DNA from: a virus
DNA length: 64,000 bases
Direction: 5' to 3' (one strand)
IMG/VR virus record: IMGVR_UViG_3300045391_005044
Every line of letters starts with the position of its first letter. The stretch's first letter is position 1. The notes beneath the pieces are model-generated. The model saw nothing but the letters and a program-made list of their open reading frames with translations, made no database searches and was not told the DNA's origin. This document shows positions 1,628-60,335 of this stretch, in pieces. The translations under genes and the position numbers were made by a program.

Positions 1628-1755
1628 GGGGAGATGGCGGAATGGTAGACGCGTCGATTCACTTAGGTGTGATAGGCAGGAGAAGCTTAATCGCAAAAGA
1701 GCAATACTTGATCAAGTAACTCAATCCTATGCAGGTTCGAATCCTGCTCTTCCCG
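1628..1755 (+). tRNA. tRNA-like gene, 128 nt, Leu-type D arm, non-canonical or insert-containing central region
   Basis: Acceptor GGGGAGA/TCTTCCC (7 bp, one G-U). D arm TGGCGGAATGGTAGACGCG as in bacterial tRNA-Leu. T arm GCAGG-TTCGAAT-CCTGC. 77 nt lie between the D and T arms. CTTAGGT (possible UAG anticodon loop) is present, but I could not form a canonical 5-bp stem by hand. Confidence 0.5.
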
Positions 1756-5000: not shown

Positions 5001-5033
5001 TTTGTTTTTTATCCATTATTTATAGTACATTTG
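5001..5033 (+). promoter_or_regulatory. Bacteroidota-type promoter for the tRNA cluster
   Basis: TTTG (5001-5004), 21-nt spacer, TACATTTG (5026-5033), matching TTTG/TAnnTTTG. The extended motif AGTAyATTTGCATCAA is shared with the promoter at 19972. Confidence 0.45.
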
Positions 5034-5070: not shown

Positions 5071-5142
5071 GCCTCGGTAGCTCAGTTGGTAGAGCGCCGG
5101 ACTGAAGATCCGGTAGCGGTGGTTCGAATCCATCCCGAGGCA
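5071..5142 (+). tRNA. tRNA-Phe (anticodon GAA)
   Basis: Canonical cloverleaf. Acceptor GCCTCGG/CCGAGGC. D arm GCTC-AGTTGGTA-GAGC. Anticodon arm CCGGA-CTGAAGA-TCCGG. T arm GGTGG-TTCGAAT-CCATC. Discriminator A. No encoded CCA. Confidence 0.85.
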
Positions 5143-5147
5143 CAAAT

Positions 5148-5222
5148 GCCAATGTAAGCTCAAATGGTAGAGCTCGCCCCGAACTGGTGTGCGGGTTATG
5201 GGTTCGATTCCTGTTATTGGCG
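5148..5222 (+). tRNA. tRNA-like gene, 75 nt, irregular anticodon arm (isotype not assignable by eye)
   Basis: Acceptor GCCAATG/TATTGGC. D arm AGCT-CAAATGGTAG-AGCT. T arm ATGGG-TTCGATT-CCTGT. The central CCCG-AACTGGTGTG-CGGG gives only a 4-bp stem with a 10-nt loop. Candidate anticodons GGU or UGG need mismatches or a 1-nt deletion. Confidence 0.5.
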
Positions 5223-5228
5223 CAAAAT

Positions 5229-5344
5229 GGATAAGACGCACATTGGTAGTGCCGGAGTAATTACCGCCGAAGGCTTCAAAGCCTTCTGTATCTCAAAAGG
5301 ATGCATTGTTGGTCTTGGTGCGGGTTCGAATCCCGCCTTATCCA
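5229..5344 (+). tRNA. tRNA-like gene, 116 nt, with ~40 extra nt and a TCA-containing hairpin
   Basis: Acceptor GGATAAG/CTTATCC. D arm GCAC-ATTGGTA-GTGC. T arm GCGGG-TTCGAAT-CCCGC. The centre holds a perfect hairpin GAAGGC-TTCAAA-GCCTTC, readable as a 5-bp stem with an 8-nt loop CTTCAAAG, plus flanking extra sequence. Confidence 0.45.
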
Positions 5345-5345
5345 C

Positions 5346-5364
5346 ATGAGAATTTTAACAAACA
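5346..5364 (+). repeat. 19-nt direct repeat, left copy (ATGAGAATTTTAACAAACA)
   Basis: Identical to 5716-5734. This copy encodes only a 9-codon relic (MRILTNTHS*). Confidence 0.85.
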
Positions 5365-5374
5365 CGCATTCATA

Positions 5375-5719
5375 ATGGACACGAGAGCTGAACACATTTT
5401 CTTAGAAAATTTCTCAAGAGACACTTCATTCACTGGAAAAGAATCCGCTCTTTCTTTAATTTTCGGAGGCAATAAATACAGTCAATCTGAAATGAGAAAA
5501 AATTGGCAAGAGGGGATAAAACTTGGAATAGAAACTGGACTCAGGTGCGCCAGCTTGGAAGGACAAAAAATAGAAATAAACAGCAATGTTAAAAACCCAA
5601 AGCACAAAAAGTTTTTAGAAAAATTCTATGCACTGGCAGAAGAATATAAATGTGCCATACAGTATCATCCAGAATACGGAATATTTGTGGTAGACAGAGA
5701 TTATAACAACTACGAATGA
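5375..5719 (+). CDS. hypothetical protein (cassette bracketed by 19-nt direct repeats)
   Basis: The tracked ORF start at 5306 lies in the tRNA-like gene. The first ATG after it is 5375 (MDTRAEHIF...). The stop overlaps the next start (ATGA at 5716-5719). Confidence 0.5.
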   Translation: MDTRAEHIFLENFSRDTSFTGKESALSLIFGGNKYSQSEMRKNWQEGIKLGIETGLRCASLEGQKIEINSNVKNPKHKKFLEKFYALAEEYKCAIQYHPEYGIFVVDRDYNNYE

Positions 5720-5734
5720 GAATTTTAACAAACA
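5716..5734 (+). repeat. 19-nt direct repeat, right copy
   Basis: Identical to 5346-5364. Forms the true 5' end of the nuclease gene (MRILTNK...). Confidence 0.85.
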
Positions 5735-7636: not shown

Positions 7637-8994
7637 TAAATCAATCTGAAGGTCTTAAATTCCTGAGACTTGCGCTCGAAAATTTCAAAAACATTGACCA
7701 GAAGGTCATCGAAATCGGTGGTCAATCCTTCTTTGTGATGGGCAAAAATGGCGCCGGCAAATCTTCCCTGATCCAGGCACTGATGTCCCCGATGGACACC
7801 AAAATAGTGCCTTCTGCCCCAATCAAAAAAGGGGAGGAGCGATCTACCATCTCCGTAACTATCGGAGGTACCGTGAAGGGCGAGCCCAAGCAGTATACCA
7901 TCGACATGTACTTCACGCCCAAGAATCAGTCCGGCAGGATCGTGGTCACCGACCAGAATGGTGAGAACGTGAAGAGCCCGGCCACCTTCCTGAAGTCACA
8001 GATCGGCAACGTATCGTTCGATGTGATGAGATGGATGCAGGACACGAAGGCAAAGAAGCTGGAGACCATAAAAAATCTAACCGGCTGCGGCATGCAGATC
8101 GATCTTATCAATAAGGAGATCAAGGAGACGTCAGAGAAGCGCAAAACGAAGAAGGATCGCGCTGAAGAGCTGGAGGCTATATTAAACAACCACCAGTACA
8201 CCCAGGAGCAGATCGACCGGTACTCCAACCCAAGGGATGTGGAAGCCATTCAGGCGGAACTGTCTGCTATTTCTGCCAACCAGAAAATCTACGATGATTT
8301 TAACATGAAAGTGGAAGGATTGAAAAATCAGATGACAATGATGTACAATCAGGCTTCAAATCACCAAAACGAGGCAGAAAGAAAAAAAGCAGAGATTGTC
8401 AGGCTGCAGGCTGAAGTTCAAGCACATGAGGACAAAATGACTGAAATTCAACAGGGAATAAACGAGTTAGACACCAAATTGTTCACTGGTCAAAACTGGC
8501 TCAATAGCAATCATCGCCCAGTAAGCGACGAGGTAGTATCTAAGCTAAACGAAGCTACTACCCACAATCTGCACTGCGCAAATATCTCCGGTCTTGCCGA
8601 GAAGCAGCGCGAGATGCTCAAATTTAAGGAGGAAGTGCTGCAGGCAGACAATGCCATCAAAAAGCTGGAGGACGACCGATCAACTCTGATCTCCAAGTCG
8701 CAGCTTCCAATCAAGGACCTCACCTTCACGGATGATGAGATTTTCTTAAATGGCATCCCGCTGGAGGAAGGGCAGGTAAATACCGCTAAATTGTTTGAGG
8801 TGGGCGTTGACGTGGCTATAGCCCTCAATCCGGGGCTGAAGACCATATTCCTTCACGATGGCTCGTTATTCGATAAGGACAACCTACGTGTGATCGTCGA
8901 TAAGATCGAATCCAGGGGCTACCAAGCGATCATTGAGGTCGTAGCGGAGAATGACGATGTAGAGGTTAAATTTACAGAGGAGGAATTAAAATAA
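7633..8994 (+). CDS. SMC/RecF/SbcC-like ATPase
   Basis: N-terminal Walker A GKNGAGKSS, long central coiled-coil (K/E/Q-rich), C-terminal Walker B-like TIFLHDGSLFD. Confidence 0.65.
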   Translation: MINQSEGLKFLRLALENFKNIDQKVIEIGGQSFFVMGKNGAGKSSLIQALMSPMDTKIVPSAPIKKGEERSTISVTIGGTVKGEPKQYTIDMYFTPKNQSGRIVVTDQNGENVKSPATFLKSQIGNVSFDVMRWMQDTKAKKLETIKNLTGCGMQIDLINKEIKETSEKRKTKKDRAEELEAILNNHQYTQEQIDRYSNPRDVEAIQAELSAISANQKIYDDFNMKVEGLKNQMTMMYNQASNHQNEAERKKAEIVRLQAEVQAHEDKMTEIQQGINELDTKLFTGQNWLNSNHRPVSDEVVSKLNEATTHNLHCANISGLAEKQREMLKFKEEVLQADNAIKKLEDDRSTLISKSQLPIKDLTFTDDEIFLNGIPLEEGQVNTAKLFEVGVDVAIALNPGLKTIFLHDGSLFDKDNLRVIVDKIESRGYQAIIEVVAENDDVEVKFTEEELK

Positions 8995-10065: not shown

Positions 10066-11858
10066 TTGACGACAGGACCGTGAGGTTCCAAAAAAAGCTG
10101 TGGGCGGAGTCGGAGATCATCCTTGCCAAGTGCTTTGGCTTTGAGATAGACATTGACAGCGGGCGCATGCATGCCAACCTGGCCATGACCTCCAAAAAGT
10201 CTCTCTTCGAATTTATCCGCATAGCCTTCAAAAATTTCAGCGAGTCTCCCACAGAGACGGAGCGCCGGAACATGTTCTTTGGAGAAGTGCAGGGATGTTA
10301 CGATCAGATCGATTATCAGGCCGATCTCCAGATAAAGCCTCGTCTTCCGTATTACGACAGTTTTTACGATCACCAGAAGCAGGGATTGCGGGAAGTGTTT
10401 TACAAAAAACACAACTTTTTGGCCTACGAAATGGGTCTTGGAAAATCGTTGACAAGTGCTTCCATATCCAGAGTATTCCAAATACCACGAACAGTAATCG
10501 TGTGCCCGGCCGCCGTAAAGTGGAACTGGTATCGGGACCTGGTAAAGTTTGGGTATAACGAGCTTTACTTTACTATCCTTGACTCATCGAAGTACAAGAC
10601 CGTTCGTGCCTTCAACGAGCGCTTTGTGATCATCAACTACGACATGTTGCCGAACTTTGAAAAGGAGCTCTGTAAACTTCCGGTAGGCCACTTCATCTTG
10701 GATGAGGCTCACTATCTGAAGAACCACAATTCGGCCCGCTACAAGAACCTGAAGAAGGTAATCGACCAGCACACCGACCCGAGGATTACCTTTCTCTCTG
10801 GCACGCCAATCACCAACCGGGTGAATGACGTATTCGCCTACCTGAAACTCATCGGCCACGAGCTGGGGCAGTCCCATAAAAAGTTTCTTGACGAATACAC
10901 CATAAAGACCACCAACAGAGGAGGGGAGCGCGTAACTGGCGGAAGGAATCTGCAGGACCTGCACATAAAGCTCTCCAACTTCATGATCCGCAAGACCAAG
11001 GAGGAATGCCTGGATCTGCCTGGAAAGATCTTCATGTCCTACCGGTTTGAGATGGATGACTACCGCGATGAGTACAACAAGATCATCGAGGAGATGTCAA
11101 AAAACAAGGACATATCCTCCCTGACGGGCAACATACACTCTTTAAACATCATAACCTCCAAAGCCAAGATACATGGCATAAAGGAGCTTGCAGAGACGAT
11201 TCTGGAGACTGGAAAGAAAGTTGTCATCTTTGGTAGCTACAAGGAGCCTCTGAACGAGCTGGAGGCCTATTTTGGTAAGAAGTGCGTAAAGATCGATGGA
11301 TCTGTAGATTCCTGGATGCGCGATCAGCTGGTGCAGCGCTTCCATAACGATCCGGAGGTTACCGTGTTCCTTGGGAACATGAAAGCCGCAGGCGTAGGTA
11401 TAAACCTCACCAATGCATCGGATGTCATATACCTGAACTTCCCTCTGAGCCCTGCAGACCTGTACCAAAGCATGGACCGCCTTGACAGGATCGGGCAGGT
11501 ATCGTGTGTGAATGTACACTACACCTTCTGCGAGGACAGCATCGATGACGATATCTATGATCTGATCGTGGACAAGGAGAAGGACATTGTAGCGCTGATC
11601 GACCAGGGCAGGGAGGTTATGTTCCGGGAGAATATTGTGGAGACGCTGATGAAAAAGATTTTCAACAGGGGAAGTGAGGAGCAAATAATTGGTGAAATCG
11701 TTACACCGGAGTGGGAAAATGTTCCCGAAACGGTGAAGGCTACTATCTCTGTAGAGCCTTCTGTTGTTCCGAAAGAAGAGAACATTTTTGCCCAAAAGCT
11801 TCGGGAATCTGAATCTAAAGGCACATCAATTCAATCCCTAACCCCACCAGATCTGTAA
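10050..11858 (+). CDS. SNF2-family helicase / DNA-dependent ATPase
   Basis: LAYEMGLGKSLTS (motif I), ILDEAHYLKN (II), LSGTPITNR (III), and a C-terminal helicase domain with KAAGVGINLT and QSMDRLDRIGQ (VI). Confidence 0.85.
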   Translation: MDIQLIDDRTVRFQKKLWAESEIILAKCFGFEIDIDSGRMHANLAMTSKKSLFEFIRIAFKNFSESPTETERRNMFFGEVQGCYDQIDYQADLQIKPRLPYYDSFYDHQKQGLREVFYKKHNFLAYEMGLGKSLTSASISRVFQIPRTVIVCPAAVKWNWYRDLVKFGYNELYFTILDSSKYKTVRAFNERFVIINYDMLPNFEKELCKLPVGHFILDEAHYLKNHNSARYKNLKKVIDQHTDPRITFLSGTPITNRVNDVFAYLKLIGHELGQSHKKFLDEYTIKTTNRGGERVTGGRNLQDLHIKLSNFMIRKTKEECLDLPGKIFMSYRFEMDDYRDEYNKIIEEMSKNKDISSLTGNIHSLNIITSKAKIHGIKELAETILETGKKVVIFGSYKEPLNELEAYFGKKCVKIDGSVDSWMRDQLVQRFHNDPEVTVFLGNMKAAGVGINLTNASDVIYLNFPLSPADLYQSMDRLDRIGQVSCVNVHYTFCEDSIDDDIYDLIVDKEKDIVALIDQGREVMFRENIVETLMKKIFNRGSEEQIIGEIVTPEWENVPETVKATISVEPSVVPKEENIFAQKLRESESKGTSIQSLTPPDL

Positions 11859-19948: not shown

Positions 19949-19979
19949 TTTGCAAAATTCCGAACAAAAAGTATATTTG
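19949..19979 (+). promoter_or_regulatory. Bacteroidota-type promoter
   Basis: TTTG (19949-19952), 19-nt spacer, TATATTTG (19972-19979). Shares AGTAyATTTGCATCAA with the promoter at 5026. Confidence 0.45.
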
Positions 19980-21602: not shown

Positions 21603-21711
21603 GGAAGTGTATCTCAGCTGGTTAGAGGGTCCGCATCAGGAAACTGAAAAGAGCGGTAAGCGGCCGAATGAAAACAGGCTACATGCGCGGGTTCGACTCC
21701 CGCCACTTCCA
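21603..21711 (+). tRNA. tRNA-like gene, 109 nt, class-I type arms with a ~35-nt central insert
   Basis: Acceptor GGAAGTG/CACTTCC. D arm TCTC-AGCTGGTTA-GAGG. T arm GCGGG-TTCGACT-CCCGC. The centre has CCGC...GCGG enclosing a TCAG-GAAA-CTGA tetraloop hairpin. No canonical anticodon arm found by hand. Confidence 0.45.
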
Positions 21712-23236: not shown

Positions 23237-23244
23237 CAAATGTA
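23237..23244 (-). promoter_or_regulatory. -7 box TACATTTG 4 nt upstream of ATG (leaderless-type late promoter)
   Basis: The minus strand reads TACATTTG-cgtt-ATG for the gene starting at 23232. Confidence 0.35.
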
Positions 23245-23256
23245 GTGAATTTTCGA

Positions 23257-24198
23257 TTAAAATGGCCAAATGATCTCCTGACCAGTGTTATAAACAATGG
23301 AAGCGGATCCAGAAGTAGCTGTTTGGATCCGTACCAGTGCATTACCAGGAATAGATCCGGTAAGCTGTGTGGTTTGACCATCGTTGAGCTGCACAGTAAC
23401 CGTCAATGTAACAGAATTAGAATTTCCTATCTGCGGAATACTTATCCAGCTGCTCCCACCATTAGTACTGTATTGAAGAGTTGCTGTAGCTGATGAAGTG
23501 CCTGCAAGCAGCGGATTCGTTGATGTGCAGGAAATAGAATAGCATACAGTCTGAAATTTTGTCGTTGAAATTGTATAATTACTATTCAGTGTCCTGCTAA
23601 CGTTGTTGTTGATAGTTGGCGCCGCAATCGATATTGTATAGTTTGGAGCAGATCCTGTAATCGTAATTCCATTTCCAGCTGTAAAATTAGCATTACTTCC
23701 GTCTGCACCGGCAGGTCCAACTGGCCCCTGCGGTCCAGTTGCTCCGGTAGGCCCCGTCGAACCAGGCATTCCCTGCGGTCCCTGATCCCCTTGTGGACCA
23801 GTAGCACCGGTGGCACCCGTTGGGCCAGTAGGACCTTGTGGTCCAGGATTTGATGAAGCATAAGCTCGTAATATAGATAATGAGTCATTAAGTCCAGACA
23901 CGTCCGATGTTTTCAGGTTTACCGGACGCAGGATACCGTATTTGTCGGCTGCAATTACCCGGTAGTTCTCGGTTAAATAGGAACTCGTTGAATCTAGCGG
24001 AAAGATCCTGAAATACGTGGTGTCGAACTTTATGATCGTATCGAAAAAAGGATCTTCGAATCCTACCATCTGGTAAGAGTGGTGGATGTTTCCTGACCAC
24101 AGCGGATTATCGTTAACTAAGTACCAATCGGATGAAGTGATTTGCGCTCTGATCAGGGTAGTCAGGAGCATGAACGTAAGGACGATTTTTGTTTTCAT
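23257..24198 (-). CDS. collagen-like repeat protein with N-terminal signal-like peptide (fibre protein)
   Basis: 16 consecutive G-X-Y triplets ([49 protein letters not shown]). N-terminus [19 protein letters not shown]. Confidence 0.7.
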
Positions 24199-51687: not shown

Positions 51688-51719
51688 TTAGACTAATTCT
51701 AAATAACGAGACAAATATA
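51688..51719 (-). promoter_or_regulatory. late promoter -7 box (TATATTTG, 51712-51719) followed by an R-box (51688-51706)
   Basis: The minus strand reads TATATTTGTCTCGTTATTTAGAATTAGTCTAA. The box differs by 1 nt from the copies at 63024-63042 and 63272-63294. Lies 41 nt upstream of the scaffold ATG. Confidence 0.45.
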
Positions 51720-51721
51720 TA

Positions 51722-54007
51722 CTAAGCATTTTGATTTTGCAAATTTTGAGTGTTTTTGATAATCTCATTTTGCGCAATCGGGTTCTGAGGAGCTATTTTC
51801 CCCAGCTGTTTAACGAACTCTTTCTTGAGATCATGCTGCCTGTTTTGCATATCCATTACATCAGCCCTTGCCTGTTGCTCATGTGCCTGGTACTGTTGCA
51901 TTGCTCCTTCTTTTTCTACCTGGCTTGCCAGATCGGCTTCTTTTTTTGCCTGTTCTTTGGCCTGCATGCGGGCAAGTTCTTCTTTCTGCTTGGCGTTTTC
52001 TCGTATTGCATAAGCAATATAATCCGGAGTGGATCTTCCATATAAATTTGCGTACTGTTTCTGATCAATAATCTGCATCTGAAGGAATGCGGAAAGCATT
52101 TGATTACCAGCATTGATGAGCATTTCCTCTGAATTTTCACGTTTTATGAAGCAACGGAAGTCTTCCGGAAGCATGTCTCTGGATATCCTTATGGTCCTTA
52201 CGCCTTCGTCTCCAACGGCAATAGCAAGATTTCTTTCGCTGTCGCAGTATATCCTTTTTCCAATCGTGCACATGCTTTGATAGCATTGTTCTTCAATTCT
52301 GGTTATGGCATGATAAAACGGCTCCTGCATGAGCGATCCGCGTTGTATAAGGAGCTGCGTTACTCCAACAAGCTGGTCTGATCCTGTCGATTCTCCTTTT
52401 AAAGCCTCGTTTACGCCAGTGATCTCCTGCAGGCTATTTTTCATGGCATCCATGATGTTGAAGAGTACCATCGTTCCCTGCTTCACTGTTGTATCATATG
52501 CCCCGATGGCGTTCTGTATTCCCCTGCCTTTAGCATTGATGAATATTGGCTTGGACTGATTTATGCTGTTCAGTACTTCTTCCTTGTTCATAACCATGGA
52601 ATCATCAATTACGGTTCCTGATCCCCTGGAATTGTTGAGCTGATTTTCTGTTATGGACATGATCCTGTTGATGAATCGCTGCGGGCTTATGGCGTCGTCT
52701 ACCGGGCTCAATATCTCGCCATCTACGTATCCCCAGCAATAACACTTGTATGGATATTCTACGCTGTTAAATTCAATATTGTTCGCTTCCTGGTATGGTG
52801 CAATCCCATAATCAAGTACAATGTCAGGAAGGTTTTTCACGGCAAGGTCTGACGATGAGGTGACGATCTCCTGCGGTATGAAATGACAGGTTCGCATAAC
52901 ATCTACATACAACTTCCTTTTCATTTTCCCATTCAATATTTTCTGTGCTCGCTGTGATTTATTTTCAATCAGGTCTTTGTCGGTATATCTCGGCTTGTCT
53001 TCTCCTGGATACACAAAATTGATCCGGGTGAAGTAATCGTACCCATACTCATCTTTCACATATCCATATTCGTAAGTCTCTCCGTCTTTCCAGTAAACCT
53101 GAAACACTGGTACTTTTCCGGAGTTGCTGTACTGCGTGTTCTGATGGTTAGCTGTGCCCGTGATGCCGGTTTGAAACACCATCTTTCTGTATTGATCGGC
53201 GTATGACTGTATTGCCCTGCGCTGATCATCCGTAAGATCCGGATACGCCTCATAAATCTCTGAAGCCTCCATATACACAACCTCTCCCATGAACCCTGCG
53301 TCTTTCAAGTCATATCTTTTTGCGCTTCGATCAAAGAAGAAATTTTCAGATTGCACTACATAAAATTCCTGGTGGCCACCATATTCAAAAGTTTTCTTAA
53401 CTCCCAATCCGGTCAAGGCAAGATTTTCTGCGAGTGGCATTTGGGTGTTTGAAAATTCATTTCTTTCGGAAATGTATTTTAAAAGGTCGTTCATGGTGTT
53501 CACGTACCGGTCAACGTACAGATTTGAGAATATAGCCTCTGTTTCTGCGTCGCTATCGCCGATCGCTTTCTTTTTTTTCAGGTCTTCTCCGAAAGGGTTT
53601 CCTTCTTCGTTTGCAATCTTACTGTACCAAAGTTGCTCGGCCAGATGCTGCTCTCTCCGGTTTATTGCGTGCGGAGAAACGGACTTCACGTCGAAGTTTA
53701 TGCTCATGCGTATCGCGTTACCTCGATACTGCTCAACCATTGGGCGGATGAGGTTTCTCACCACCTTTATCCTGTTCCTGTTCTGGTTGGTTTCGTCCTT
53801 GAAGAATGATTCGGTATCTTCCTGCAGGATCCACTGATTGCCCTTATAGAAATTTTTGTTGAGGCGCACTTTCTCTACAAATTCATTTTGATAGAGATTG
53901 TTTGCCTGCCCAACGCAGAAGCGTCCGAATTTAAGGTGATATTCCTGATCCTTGTTATTTTCAAGGATGCTTGGCCTGGGCTGTCCGTTTGATATAAGAA
54001 AAAACAT
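51722..54007 (-). CDS. portal protein (candidate)
   Basis: 761 aa, between the terminase region and scaffold/capsid. The N-terminal NKNFYKGNQW...RNLIRPMVEQYRGN region is portal-like. Confidence 0.55.
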   Translation of the reverse strand: MFFLISNGQPRPSILENNKDQEYHLKFGRFCVGQANNLYQNEFVEKVRLNKNFYKGNQWILQEDTESFFKDETNQNRNRIKVVRNLIRPMVEQYRGNAIRMSINFDVKSVSPHAINRREQHLAEQLWYSKIANEEGNPFGEDLKKKKAIGDSDAETEAIFSNLYVDRYVNTMNDLLKYISERNEFSNTQMPLAENLALTGLGVKKTFEYGGHQEFYVVQSENFFFDRSAKRYDLKDAGFMGEVVYMEASEIYEAYPDLTDDQRRAIQSYADQYRKMVFQTGITGTANHQNTQYSNSGKVPVFQVYWKDGETYEYGYVKDEYGYDYFTRINFVYPGEDKPRYTDKDLIENKSQRAQKILNGKMKRKLYVDVMRTCHFIPQEIVTSSSDLAVKNLPDIVLDYGIAPYQEANNIEFNSVEYPYKCYCWGYVDGEILSPVDDAISPQRFINRIMSITENQLNNSRGSGTVIDDSMVMNKEEVLNSINQSKPIFINAKGRGIQNAIGAYDTTVKQGTMVLFNIMDAMKNSLQEITGVNEALKGESTGSDQLVGVTQLLIQRGSLMQEPFYHAITRIEEQCYQSMCTIGKRIYCDSERNLAIAVGDEGVRTIRISRDMLPEDFRCFIKRENSEEMLINAGNQMLSAFLQMQIIDQKQYANLYGRSTPDYIAYAIRENAKQKEELARMQAKEQAKKEADLASQVEKEGAMQQYQAHEQQARADVMDMQNRQHDLKKEFVKQLGKIAPQNPIAQNEIIKNTQNLQNQNA

Positions 54008-58121: not shown

Positions 58122-58248
58122 ACTCTTTTAATGTTGTCGCCGCCTCAGCAGCAAAGCGACAGCAATGTCTTTGCGTAATACCGCATATATTACTTCTTGG
58201 CAAATGTAGAAACTTTTTCCCAAAAACAAACATTTCCTGAAAAATATT

Positions 58249-58277
58249 TTTGTGCCGGGGAAATTTTTCTATATTTG
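58249..58277 (+). promoter_or_regulatory. Bacteroidota-type promoter
   Basis: TTTG (58249-58252), 17-nt spacer, TATATTTG (58270-58277), 30 nt upstream of the ATG at 58308. Confidence 0.45.
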
Positions 58278-58732: not shown

Positions 58733-59046
58733 ATAACGAACAACGACTGACAGCTGATCAAAAATTATCCTTCGCCAAAATCATCATGCTATTGCTGGCT
58801 ACGGCACTGGTGTTCATGATATATTACTACGATAAGCAGCGCGATCGAGCTGACGACCTGCAGGCTAAAAAAGACCTGGCCGACTCCACGCTTCAGAAGG
58901 AAAAGAAGATGTTCTGCCAAAAGATGAACGACACGCTCGATCAGTACTACCTGATAAACAAAAAGGATCTGGAGCTGCAGGCCGTGATCCACATCGACAC
59001 AAATTCTCTCGACACAATAACCCTTAAAAATAAAACAGAAAAATGA
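58729..59046 (+). CDS. single-pass membrane protein, hypothetical
   Basis: TM helix FAKIIMLLLATALVFMIYYY followed by a coiled region. Confidence 0.5.
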   Translation: MNNEQRLTADQKLSFAKIIMLLLATALVFMIYYYDKQRDRADDLQAKKDLADSTLQKEKKMFCQKMNDTLDQYYLINKKDLELQAVIHIDTNSLDTITLKNKTEK

Positions 59047-59960
59047 GTACAGAATCAGGATTGCCTGGGCATTCCATCAATGAAGGATACCCATACAACG
59101 AGATCGTAACGCGTGGTGCTATGCCAAACCGGCTGGCGTTCGGCGTAAACGAAAAAGGACAAATCTTAGTCAACTGGAACCCGGAAGTGTTCCAGGTAGA
59201 AGATGCTCCGGAAGCACTGAAGGACTTCTTCATCCACCGGCTGGCGGACTACCACGAAGCGTTGAATACCGCTGAGGGGCAGATCGAGGACATCCTCAAC
59301 GAGATGCCATTCATCCCTGAGGAGTTCGACTTTGAGCTGATCGTGAAGCCAGAGGACATCAGTGACAGTCCGGTAAGGCTATACCAGTCCAAACATTGCC
59401 CGGAGTATTCGCTGTACCGCCCGCTGGGTGATCCGAATGACCTCAACTGGGATCCTGCGCAGTGGGTGATCCTCAAGAAGGAGAGCGACAACACATTTAA
59501 GCCGATACCAGTTAATATCCCGTGCCACCGTATAGCCTATGCGTTGTTCTATGCGCTTGGCATCCGCATTCGCCCGGATATGAGCAAGGTGATGCATGAG
59601 GCGAGCACATCGGCGCCAGTGAGGGAGGAGGAGCAAAAAGTTGTAAACATTACGAGTGATGAAAACGGCAATTATTATCCAGGATTGGGTACAGTGGCTA
59701 TAAAGGAAAGCATTCCTGGTGAAGATTGGCCTGTTCCACCTGCTGATAAAATAACGACTCCTGGACAAGTATACTTCGACGTATCGTATTCCCGTCCTGG
59801 TCAGCACCCGGTGGTGAAATTTGAGAGGATCGCGGCTGAGGACGAAAAGGACGCCATCACCAAGGCCAAGTTCATGGTGGAGACCGATCCGAATAGCGGT
59901 GATCAGGTTCACACGGCAGAGTTCGAGCATTTCAAGGCAATTCAAATCCCAACATTCTGA
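59043..59960 (+). CDS. hypothetical protein
   Basis: 305-aa ORF with ATGA coupling upstream. Confidence 0.55.
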   Translation: MSTESGLPGHSINEGYPYNEIVTRGAMPNRLAFGVNEKGQILVNWNPEVFQVEDAPEALKDFFIHRLADYHEALNTAEGQIEDILNEMPFIPEEFDFELIVKPEDISDSPVRLYQSKHCPEYSLYRPLGDPNDLNWDPAQWVILKKESDNTFKPIPVNIPCHRIAYALFYALGIRIRPDMSKVMHEASTSAPVREEEQKVVNITSDENGNYYPGLGTVAIKESIPGEDWPVPPADKITTPGQVYFDVSYSRPGQHPVVKFERIAAEDEKDAITKAKFMVETDPNSGDQVHTAEFEHFKAIQIPTF

Positions 59961-59963
59961 GCC

Positions 59964-60335
59964 ATGCTAAAAGAAAGAAATCCAACGGAGGAAGAGAGCA
60001 ATTTACTCGCTTCCTCCAGCCTGTTAGCTGCACTGAAGCTGAGATACCCCAAAGACACATCTCTGGTGGAAATAAACGAAAACGGATCAGTAAAAAATTG
60101 GTATGTTATCGGACCGGAAGGAATAATTGAAAGCAAACCCGGATCGGGTCAGTGTTTTTGCCATCCAGGAGCCCACAGGCATTCTGAATTATGGAGAGGT
60201 GATCACATAAGAGCCCAAACCGAATTAGAAGGCTATAAACTGTTGGTGAAGAGCCTGAGTGTAAGGATGATGATCATCGTTATTTTTACGGCGATTATGG
60301 CTACATGCCTTGCTGTTTCGTTAGTTGTAAAGTAA
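59964..60335 (+). CDS. hypothetical protein with C-terminal TM helix
   Basis: 123 aa. C-terminus MMIIVIFTAIMATCLAVSLVV. Confidence 0.5.
   Translation: MLKERNPTEEESNLLASSSLLAALKLRYPKDTSLVEINENGSVKNWYVIGPEGIIESKPGSGQCFCHPGAHRHSELWRGDHIRAQTELEGYKLLVKSLSVRMMIIVIFTAIMATCLAVSLVVK

Follow-up and report, generated by a model that had tools for sequence, protein, structure and literature searches.

An oversized tRNA-like gene with no canonical anticodon arm in the tRNA cluster of an uncultivated phage

The IMG/VR virus record IMGVR_UViG_3300045391_005044 contains, at positions 5229-5344 of the 64,000-nucleotide (nt) stretch analyzed here (the window, which covers the greater part of a ~72-kb phage genome), a 116-nt gene that has the outer shell of a transfer RNA (tRNA) and, in place of the codon-reading part, an overlong center made of hairpins. 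That the locus is tRNA-derived is secure, and it almost certainly reads no codon, stop or otherwise, whether intact or after simple excision. As to what it is for, we tentatively favor the view that the gene, hereafter 5229, specifies a non-decoding tRNA-like RNA that would be transcribed together with a genuine tRNA-Phe and matured by tRNA-processing enzymes, whose cuts would also determine where the downstream message begins, and that might in addition act in trans as a tRNA mimic. Its expression, processing and role we infer from sequence comparison and structure prediction.

The case for a tRNA origin lies in the shell (Table 1). An initial annotation of this DNA had described an acceptor stem, a D arm, a T arm, and a central hairpin, and all of these are present where it placed them. 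It had also called the shell canonical, which is correct for the acceptor, D, and T stems, all of which are intact, but not for position 8: the D arm is preceded by A8 and C9, and the near-invariant U8 is thus replaced by A. A shell scanner of our own, which demanded full pairing in the acceptor stem (7/7) and in the T arm (5/5), TTCRA in the T loop, and GG in the D arm, recovered the tRNA-type genes alone from both strands of the window, and hence the shell of 5229 is not a chance match. At default settings the gene escapes the standard programs. ARAGORN called only tRNA-Phe, and Rfam with default filters at the gathering threshold called the genes beginning at 5071, 5148, 1628, and 21603 but not 5229. 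With lax filters, however, the Rfam tRNA family (RF00005) matched end to end in a search of 5225-5348, at 32.4 bits (gathering threshold, 29; E = 1.4e-05); the alignment has no anticodon arm but a local insertion of 58 nt in its place. The body is indeed too long, as had been remarked: the center is 67 nt where ~23 nt is expected in a tRNA. When the whole element was folded without constraint, the minimum free energy (MFE) structure consisted of the shell and three central hairpins (-41.7 kcal/mol, z = -3.36).

The hairpin GAAGGC-TTCAAA-GCCTTC singled out by the initial annotation was confirmed at 5269-5286. This hairpin (H2, element positions 41-58) and the one that abuts it (H3, element positions 59-77) dominate the ensemble when the fold is constrained to the tRNA shell, which is how the pair probabilities for H2 and H3 in Table 1 were computed. 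Extra hairpins had been proposed on both sides of H2; the 3' one is H3 and is strong, whereas the 5' CGG/CCG hairpin is present but weak. If H3 is taken as a stem of 5 base pairs (bp), it exposes a 7-nt loop, UCAAAAG, with C where U33 belongs. In a fold lying ~1 kcal/mol above the MFE, the tail at 5306-5319 pairs with 5263-5268 (ACCGCC) to form a Y-shaped domain that encloses H2 and H3. The 40-nt double hairpin made up of H2 and H3 has a z score of -4.84, and none of 200 shuffled sequences folded equally well. Stability so far above chance fits a center that has been selected to fold on itself without disturbing the shell. No Rfam family besides tRNA matched the center at E <= 10, and a search of the window for an antisense target yielded a single 12-mer match, which is the chance expectation. 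We also considered the H2 18-mer GAAGGCTTCAAAGCCTTC as an RNA motif. It occurs in at least 119 IMG/VR viral contigs (our loci L079-L197), but nearly all of the matches fall in one conserved coding locus of human-gut phages or in other coding contexts, and the candidate was rejected.

Table 1. Features of the window and tRNA-like elements of related phages (L numbers denote relatives' loci).
Feature	Position	Strand	Length	Remarks
tRNA-like gene 5229	5229-5344	+	116 nt	First acceptor base to discriminator A; CCA not encoded
Acceptor stem, 5' strand, GGAUAAG	5229-5235	+		7/7 Watson-Crick with 5337-5343
D arm, GCAC-AUUGGUA-GUGC	5238-5252	+		4-bp stem, 7-nt loop; A14, G18, G19, A21 present
Weak hairpin, CGG-AGUAAUUA-CCG	5253-5266	+		Site where anticodon arm should start; pair probabilities 0.53-0.64
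Hairpin H2, GAAGGC(U)-UCAA-(A)GCCUUC	5269-5286	+		The CUUCAAA(G) hairpin; pair probabilities 0.84-0.99
Hairpin H3, UGUAUCU-CAAAA-GGAUGCA	5287-5305	+		Abuts H2 directly; pair probabilities 0.79-0.99
Tail, UUGUUGGUCUUGGU	5306-5319	+	14 nt	Unpaired in MFE fold
T arm, GCGGG-UUCGAAU-CCCGC	5320-5336	+		5-bp stem; loop conforms to UUCRANY
Acceptor stem, 3' strand, CUUAUCC	5337-5343	+		Followed by discriminator A at 5344
Promoter-like motif, TTTG-N21-TACATTTG	5001-5033	+		Bacteroidota type; 38 nt 5' of tRNA-Phe
tRNA-Phe(GAA)	5071-5143	+		Canonical; first gene of cluster; ARAGORN call; Rfam tRNA 75.7 bits
tRNA-like gene	5148-5222	+	75 nt	Shell intact; Rfam tRNA 32.8 bits, anticodon arm skipped; not among ARAGORN calls
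Direct repeat, copy 1	5346-5364	+	19 nt	Relic exonuclease start; 1 nt past discriminator-plus-C of 5229; 100% match to 5716-5734
Direct repeat, copy 2	5716-5734	+	19 nt	True start of PD-(D/E)XK exonuclease gene
tRNA-like gene	1628-1755	+	128 nt	Leu-type D arm, 78-nt center; Rfam tRNA 37.9 bits
tRNA-like gene	21603-21711	+	109 nt	'Anticodon' helix capped UCAG-GAAA-CUGA; 27-nt variable region; Rfam tRNA 41.9 bits
TTTG-N17-23-TAnnTTTG, copies including	5001-5033, 19949-19979, 58249-58277(+), 58201-58230(-), 51712-51743(-), 23237-23270(-)			
L003 element	9251		94 nt	Expanded center
L008 element	8401		77 nt	Lacks canonical anticodon arm
L015 element	11213-11318		~105 nt	Cloverleaf clean save for 39-nt 'anticodon loop'
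L055 element	7647-7688		~42 nt	Acceptor and T arm only
L055 element	7702		95 nt	Weak anticodon stem
L055 element	7829		148 nt	Very long center
L058 element	6380		~92 nt	D arm unrecognizable
L073 element	7591		84 nt	19-nt loop on a perfect anticodon stem; D arm of Phe type
L074 element			~72 nt	Short anticodon arm, acceptor 5/7
L076 / L077 element	8333-8437 / 8236-8339		~104-105 nt	Homologue of window 21603
L198 element			~104 nt	7-bp stem, 17-nt loop

The heptamer CUUCAAA is the anticodon loop of selenocysteine tRNA (tRNA-Sec) and of opal suppressors, and 8-nt anticodon loops occur in +1 frameshift suppressors. The identity of the H2 heptamer to that loop had led the initial annotation to see a UCA (opal-reading) anticodon context in 5229. 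On such a reading the RNA, as it stands, would be an opal suppressor presenting UCA or a quadruplet (+1) decoder presenting UCAA in an 8-nt loop. We regard this reading as largely refuted and scarcely credible. H2 is both displaced and misshapen: it begins 16 nt past the D arm, where 1 nt is normal, it is separated from the T stem by 33 nt, and its loop can be drawn with 6 or 8 nt and shrinks to 4 nt on the 7-bp stem of the preferred MFE fold, but it never has 7 nt. Indeed, a canonical anticodon arm (a 5-bp stem closing a 7-nt loop in which position 33 is U and position 37 a purine, placed 1 nt after the D arm) is absent from intact 5229. Nor is the body that of tRNA-Sec, which has a 13-bp acceptor/T branch (8/5 in bacteria), a 6-bp D stem with a 4-nt loop, and a long variable arm (PMC5389517). 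The body of 5229, in contrast, combines a 7/5 acceptor/T branch with a D arm of 4 bp and seven loop nucleotides; it failed all structural tests for tRNA-Sec, and in a competition among Rfam families of the same clan tRNA-Sec never outscored the 32.4-bit tRNA match. Quadruplet decoding was considered separately for an element of a relative (L055 7702), for which ARAGORN gives the anticodon 'gatg', and was rejected, the anticodon stem being poor in that model.

The coding background of the phage likewise leaves an opal suppressor without a substrate. A greedy set of open reading frames (ORFs) in the standard code (code 11) covers 92.6% of the window, and TGA is the stop codon of 17 of its 68 ORFs, mostly inside ATGA start/stop overlaps; in the early block that holds 5229 it ends 15 of 40. 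When TGA was read as sense across the window, no genuine gene pair was merged and no ORF needed readthrough, which answers in the negative the question, posed by the initial annotation, of whether any ORF is interrupted in this way. The sole pair of ORFs lying in frame across a TGA is 59043-59960 (305 amino acids [aa]) and 59964-60335 (123 aa), which are separated by one TGA plus one codon. The pair is unfused in all six of the homologues of the first ORF, and since these share the same end, it is evidently not a read-through gene. Recoding of TGA or TAG in this genome is therefore rejected by the coding coverage, the use of TGA as a stop, and the unfused homologues.

Might an intron be hidden in the center? 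Removal of 24-45 nt by some bacterial or phage activity would then generate a decoding tRNA. ARAGORN, when introns are allowed, does produce models for 5229 (an Arg-UCU tRNA with a 24-nt intron), 1628, and 21603, and Lak megaphages of Prevotella, a member of the Bacteroidota, have been reported to carry unexplained 'enigmatic introns' in their tRNAs (Devoto et al. 2019, PMC6784885). We nevertheless consider an intron highly improbable. An exhaustive search in which every single contiguous deletion of the center was made, and in which the product was required to carry U33 and a purine 37 in a 7-nt loop on a 5-bp stem, along with a variable region of normal or long type, gave no solution for 5229, 1628, 21603, or the L015 and L003 elements. 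The ARAGORN models place the 'introns' at 30/31 (in 5229), 33/34, and 35/36, and the tRNA-Arg(UCU) proposed for 5229 is forced, with a stem containing an A-C mismatch and two G-U pairs and built from bases inside H2 and H3 whose pair probability is ~0.98. Moreover, a group I intron would not fit into so short an insert, and Pfam and PHROG scans of ~30 window ORFs found no splicing endonuclease or RNA ligase (nor any CCA enzyme, synthetase, or RNA-repair enzyme). Inspection of the folds by eye revealed no bulge-helix-bulge of the 3-4-3 form, although no dedicated search for one was made. It is the deletion search together with the poor ARAGORN model on which the rejection of the intron rests.

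The element has company. Four of the five tRNA-type genes in the window are non-canonical and three of these are oversized, so that the initial annotation was right that three of the five carry central insertions; the 75-nt gene at 5148-5222 is non-canonical as well. In the Rfam matches to 1628 and 21603, centers of 41 nt and 27 nt, respectively, are skipped, and there are long extra inserts besides. The anticodon loop of the 75-nt gene lacks U33 in either of its registers (CGAACUG or CCGAACU); the latter register has GAA at the anticodon position, as does the adjoining tRNA-Phe. Just upstream of 1628, at 1594-1626, lies a 9-bp hairpin (CCATCCCCA...TGGGGATGG) followed by TTTATTT, ending 1 nt before the gene. 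It could be either an intrinsic terminator that abuts the tRNA-like gene or a leader structure; a terminator scan of the window did not list it.

To look beyond the window, we retrieved the corresponding loci of related phages through the neighboring exonuclease gene. Among members of the clade whose exonuclease is 36-61% identical, the interval 5' of that gene holds many tRNA-type genes, and the relatives together have at least a dozen non-canonical tRNA-likes there (Table 1). A hand census of the window and these relatives collected 17 elements with a T arm, of which ~13 have a 7-pair acceptor stem (G-U pairs allowed); a canonical anticodon loop was seen only in tRNA-Phe(GAA), in three genomes. 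Rfam scores the L073, L055, and L076 elements as tRNA, skipping the anticodon region. More distant phages reached with the same probe have ~45 ordinary tRNAs and no such elements. One of the oversized genes, 21603, has a homologue at L076 8333 that is 68% identical. The two differ by compensated pairs at four places in the acceptor stem and one in the T stem, and their stems are paired in 96.9% of cells, as compared with 43-53% when the partners are slid. Because of these five compensatory changes and the high level of stem pairing, at least this one oversized family is under selection for structure. Thus, the initial annotation's view of a lineage-specific feature is upheld, and an isolated accident is made unlikely, both by the abundance of such elements in the relatives and by the compensated pair.

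Several of these elements are instructive in themselves. The phages carrying 21603 and L076 8333 have exonucleases that are 54% identical, and the two elements occupy different genome positions; in both, the expanded loop is rich in A on its 3' side (AAAAGA and AAAAG, respectively) and the tail CAUGC precedes the T stem. The cleanest case of loop expansion in the clade is L015 11213, which has an anticodon stem GUGUG/CACAC and a 5-nt variable loop, with the 39-nt loop holding helices of its own. L055 7647 resembles a minihelix, consisting of a 7-bp acceptor stem, a T arm, and a 19-nt A/U-rich linker, and stands in tandem with two other non-canonical tRNA-likes. In L072, L074, and L076/L077, the interval between a 157-aa gene and the exonuclease contains an IS1595-family transposase, a GIY-YIG homing endonuclease, or a DNMK-family kinase. 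Judged by its contents, the interval 5' of the exonuclease is a hot-spot for recombination and insertion.

The hot-spot gives substance to the main rival of a functional RNA, namely, that 5229 is a young pseudogene: a tRNA gene acquired at the hot-spot, its center hit by one insertion or replacement, its shell not yet decayed, and without function. On balance we think this unlikely, but it is a serious contender, and a number of observations weigh on its side and against the reading that we favor. In the two nearest relatives (exonuclease 76% and 80% identical), the genes on either side lie just ~90-100 nt apart and the cluster has no counterpart of tRNA type, which makes 5229 dispensable. Besides the transposase, the homing endonuclease, and the kinase of the relatives, the hot-spot has received a 114-aa cassette with a 19-nt duplication in the window itself. 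Acceptor stems are broken in L073 (4/7), L074 (5/7), and the tRNA-Phe of L008 (5/7), and these together with the minihelix-only remnant suggest graded decay; decay is clearly also under way in the hot-spot. The census was biased toward elements with intact T arms. 5229 itself has A8 in place of U8, and its conservation is demonstrated by no homologue. In IMG/VR, a 24-mer from the T arm and acceptor stem and two two-anchor patterns joining the D arm and T arm had no matches; in GTDB genomes, the two-anchor patterns gave no matches and then one irrelevant Lysinibacillus site; and blastn against INPHARED, apart from matches to tRNA-Phe, found nothing beyond 21 nt at the T arm shared with Porphyromonas phages (E = 0.3). 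Covariation is accordingly silent on the element, H2, and H3. Finally, many relatives have no ORF within 50 nt of the element and so do not show the proximity to start codons described below for the window.

Against a pseudogene stands, first, the pattern of damage: in four independent non-canonical genes of a single genome, not one acceptor, D, or T stem has a flaw, and every change falls in the anticodon or variable region. Second, the inserted module of H2 and H3 folds far better than random sequence. Third, the sister family of 21603 has kept its stems through the compensatory changes. Fourth, a promoter motif is located directly 5' of the cluster.

How, then, might a non-decoding tRNA-like RNA be made and used? 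5229 closes a tandem row of three tRNA-type genes, which are separated by gaps of 4 and 6 nt and lie on the strand of the early genes, and the motif at 5001-5033 likely drives the cluster. Under the reading that we favor, transcription from this putative promoter would yield a tricistronic precursor of tRNA-Phe(GAA), the 75-nt tRNA-like RNA, and 5229, possibly continuing into the downstream ORFs. RNase P would cut at the 5' end of 5229, a 3' processing activity would cut past the discriminator, and CCA would be added, leaving a stable RNA of ~119 nt with no means of codon pairing. A self-contained module, two abutting 7-bp hairpins, would have taken the place of the anticodon arm and variable region. 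Because the RNA cannot pair with a codon, any selected function would reside in the shell, that is, in the acceptor/T-arm helix, the elbow formed by the D and T loops, and the discriminator. RNase P, the 3' processing enzymes, and the CCA-adding enzyme recognize the acceptor/T helix, the elbow, and the context of the discriminator. These same parts are constant in 5229 and most of its relatives, and it is the codon-reading part that varies. The likeliest role would be that of a processing or stability ('punctuation') signal, which would free the downstream message just before its start codon; the liberated mimic may, in addition, bind some factor that recognizes tRNA. Of 14 elements of the clade (from the window, L003, L008, L015, L055, L058, L073, and L076), 13 have C directly behind the discriminator, and in 11 an A comes next; CCA is never encoded. 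The C-A may represent a common context for 3' processing.

An RNA of this shape could instead work chiefly in trans, as a decoy that binds a host factor for the acceptor end or elbow, such as a defense toxin that modifies or cleaves tRNA, and shields the real tRNAs of phage and host, the conserved tRNA-Phe included. We find this rather doubtful, although it would suit elements that are accessory and fast-diversifying and that are grouped with accessory genes, as in counter-defense loci, and it would suit the fact that tRNA-Phe(GAA) is the only decoding tRNA retained clade-wide. Changes in the anticodon loops of phage tRNAs have been proposed to counter tRNA-targeting defenses (PMC10264068). 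A decoy for an anticodon nuclease, however, should retain an anticodon-like loop, and no partner protein came to light: the ~30 ORFs scanned include no RNA-repair or tRNA-related enzyme. More speculative, and decidedly doubtful, is the broader proposal that environmental phages of Bacteroidota, distant kin of the crAss-like phages, have turned their tRNA genes into diversifying non-decoding mimics, keeping the shell and swapping hairpin modules, which would serve as immunity sponges in trans or as substrates of an undescribed, protein-dependent excision pathway.

The sequences downstream of 5229 bear on the proposed punctuation role. Copy 1 of the 19-nt repeat, ATGAGAATTTTAACAAAC, follows 5229 almost immediately, and the same 19 nt recur at 5716. 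Copy 1 opens an upstream ORF of nine codons, the end of which (TAATG) overlaps the start of a 114-aa ORF (5375-5719). This ORF has the repeat on both sides, and its stop overlaps the start of the exonuclease gene (ATGA). The 114-aa protein has no Pfam match and ~75 homologues (53-69% identity) in unrelated contigs of up to 171 kb. The ORF looks like a mobile cassette that was inserted with duplication of its target; 5229 likely abutted the start of the exonuclease gene before the small ORF arrived. Since the duplication brackets the ORF and its homologues occur in unrelated contigs, a functional link between 5229 and the 114-aa ORF is unlikely. Meanwhile, the ORFs that follow 1628 and 21603 start at 1771 and 21727, in both cases 15 nt past the discriminator; one gene caller put the start of the former inside the tRNA-like gene, at 1729.

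The phage itself has no close relative among isolated phages, and DNA searches matched only its tRNA-Phe. Contigs of identical sequence are present in three metagenomes. The window encodes a P22-like portal, a primase-helicase with a BT4734-like N-terminal domain, a SNF2 helicase, a DNA polymerase III beta clamp, DNA methylases, and the PD-(D/E)XK exonuclease. The top protein match of the portal is to a crAss-like phage, at 27% identity across 19% of its length. The motif TTTG-N17-23-TAnnTTTG, which we take to be the housekeeping promoter consensus of Bacteroidota, occurs 10 times in the window as against 2.07 expected (~5-fold), a number reached in none of 100 shuffles. Because the motif is enriched and most copies lie in sense orientation in intergenic gaps, it suggests, together with the BT4734-like primase domain, that the host belongs to the Bacteroidota.

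The usual explanation for tRNA genes in phages is codon supply or, more recently, escape from tRNA-cleaving defenses. Here, an uncultivated group of phages keeps the tRNA shell and drops the anticodon, and does so repeatedly and by different routes. If the RNAs are made and selected, they would represent a second, non-translational use of tRNA-shaped RNAs in infection, whether in the processing of early transcripts or in mimicking tRNA toward host factors. Standard annotation misses such genes or labels them as intron-containing or suppressor tRNAs, with the risk of wrong inferences of stop-codon recoding; 5229 provides an example of how recoding can be excluded.

How does 5229 compare with known systems? 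The nearest published parallel is provided by the tRNA introns of the Lak megaphages, beyond which our literature search found no description of such elements. Like 5229, the Lak tRNAs are oversized, belong to phages of Bacteroidota, are missed by tRNA finders run in bacterial mode, and have an extra segment of unexplained fate in the anticodon region. They differ in that excision yields a tRNA of recognizable type and that intron-less copies define the excision points (PMC6784885), whereas no single excision restores a cloverleaf to 5229 and no insert-free copy of it is known. With a canonical elongator tRNA (RF00005), 5229 shares the 7-bp acceptor stem, the discriminator, the D arm with G18 and G19, the UUCGAAU T loop, and its tandem arrangement with a real tRNA; it departs from one in having no arm at 27-43, a 67-nt center, a total length of 116 nt, and A8. 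With tRNA-Sec and UGA suppressors, it has in common a CUUCAAA heptamer within a hairpin, and differs in loop size, the position of H2, the 7/5 body, and the D stem. Transfer-messenger RNA (tmRNA) and the bacterial Y-RNA-like YrlA contain a similar T-arm/acceptor module, but 5229 lacks the tag ORF of tmRNA and has A-U instead of G-U as its 3:70 pair, and Rfam gives a tmRNA score of only 13 bits that covers the T arm alone. YrlA, at 13-14 bits (cut-off, 69), has its ends in the Ro-binding stem rather than in an acceptor stem. Both identities were rejected on the 3:70 A-U pair, the lack of a tag ORF, and the low Rfam scores.

The remaining parallels are functional. The t-elements of plant mitochondria, mascRNA/MALAT1, and the tRNA-microRNA chimeras of herpesviruses are non-decoding tRNA-shaped modules that adjoin another functional unit within longer transcripts and for which a shell recognized by RNases P and Z is sufficient. 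Such signals, unlike 5229, are eukaryotic or organellar, and many of the relatives of 5229 do not lie beside the start of an ORF. Phage T4 produces stable RNAs, species 1 and 2 (rnaC and rnaD), of ~120-140 nt from among its tRNA genes; these have paired termini processed like those of tRNAs and no known function. They have no sequence relationship to 5229, and we offer this comparison as a lead only. By analogy, then, the closest functional counterparts of 5229 would be tRNA-shaped processing signals on the one hand and the stable RNAs of the T4 tRNA cluster on the other.

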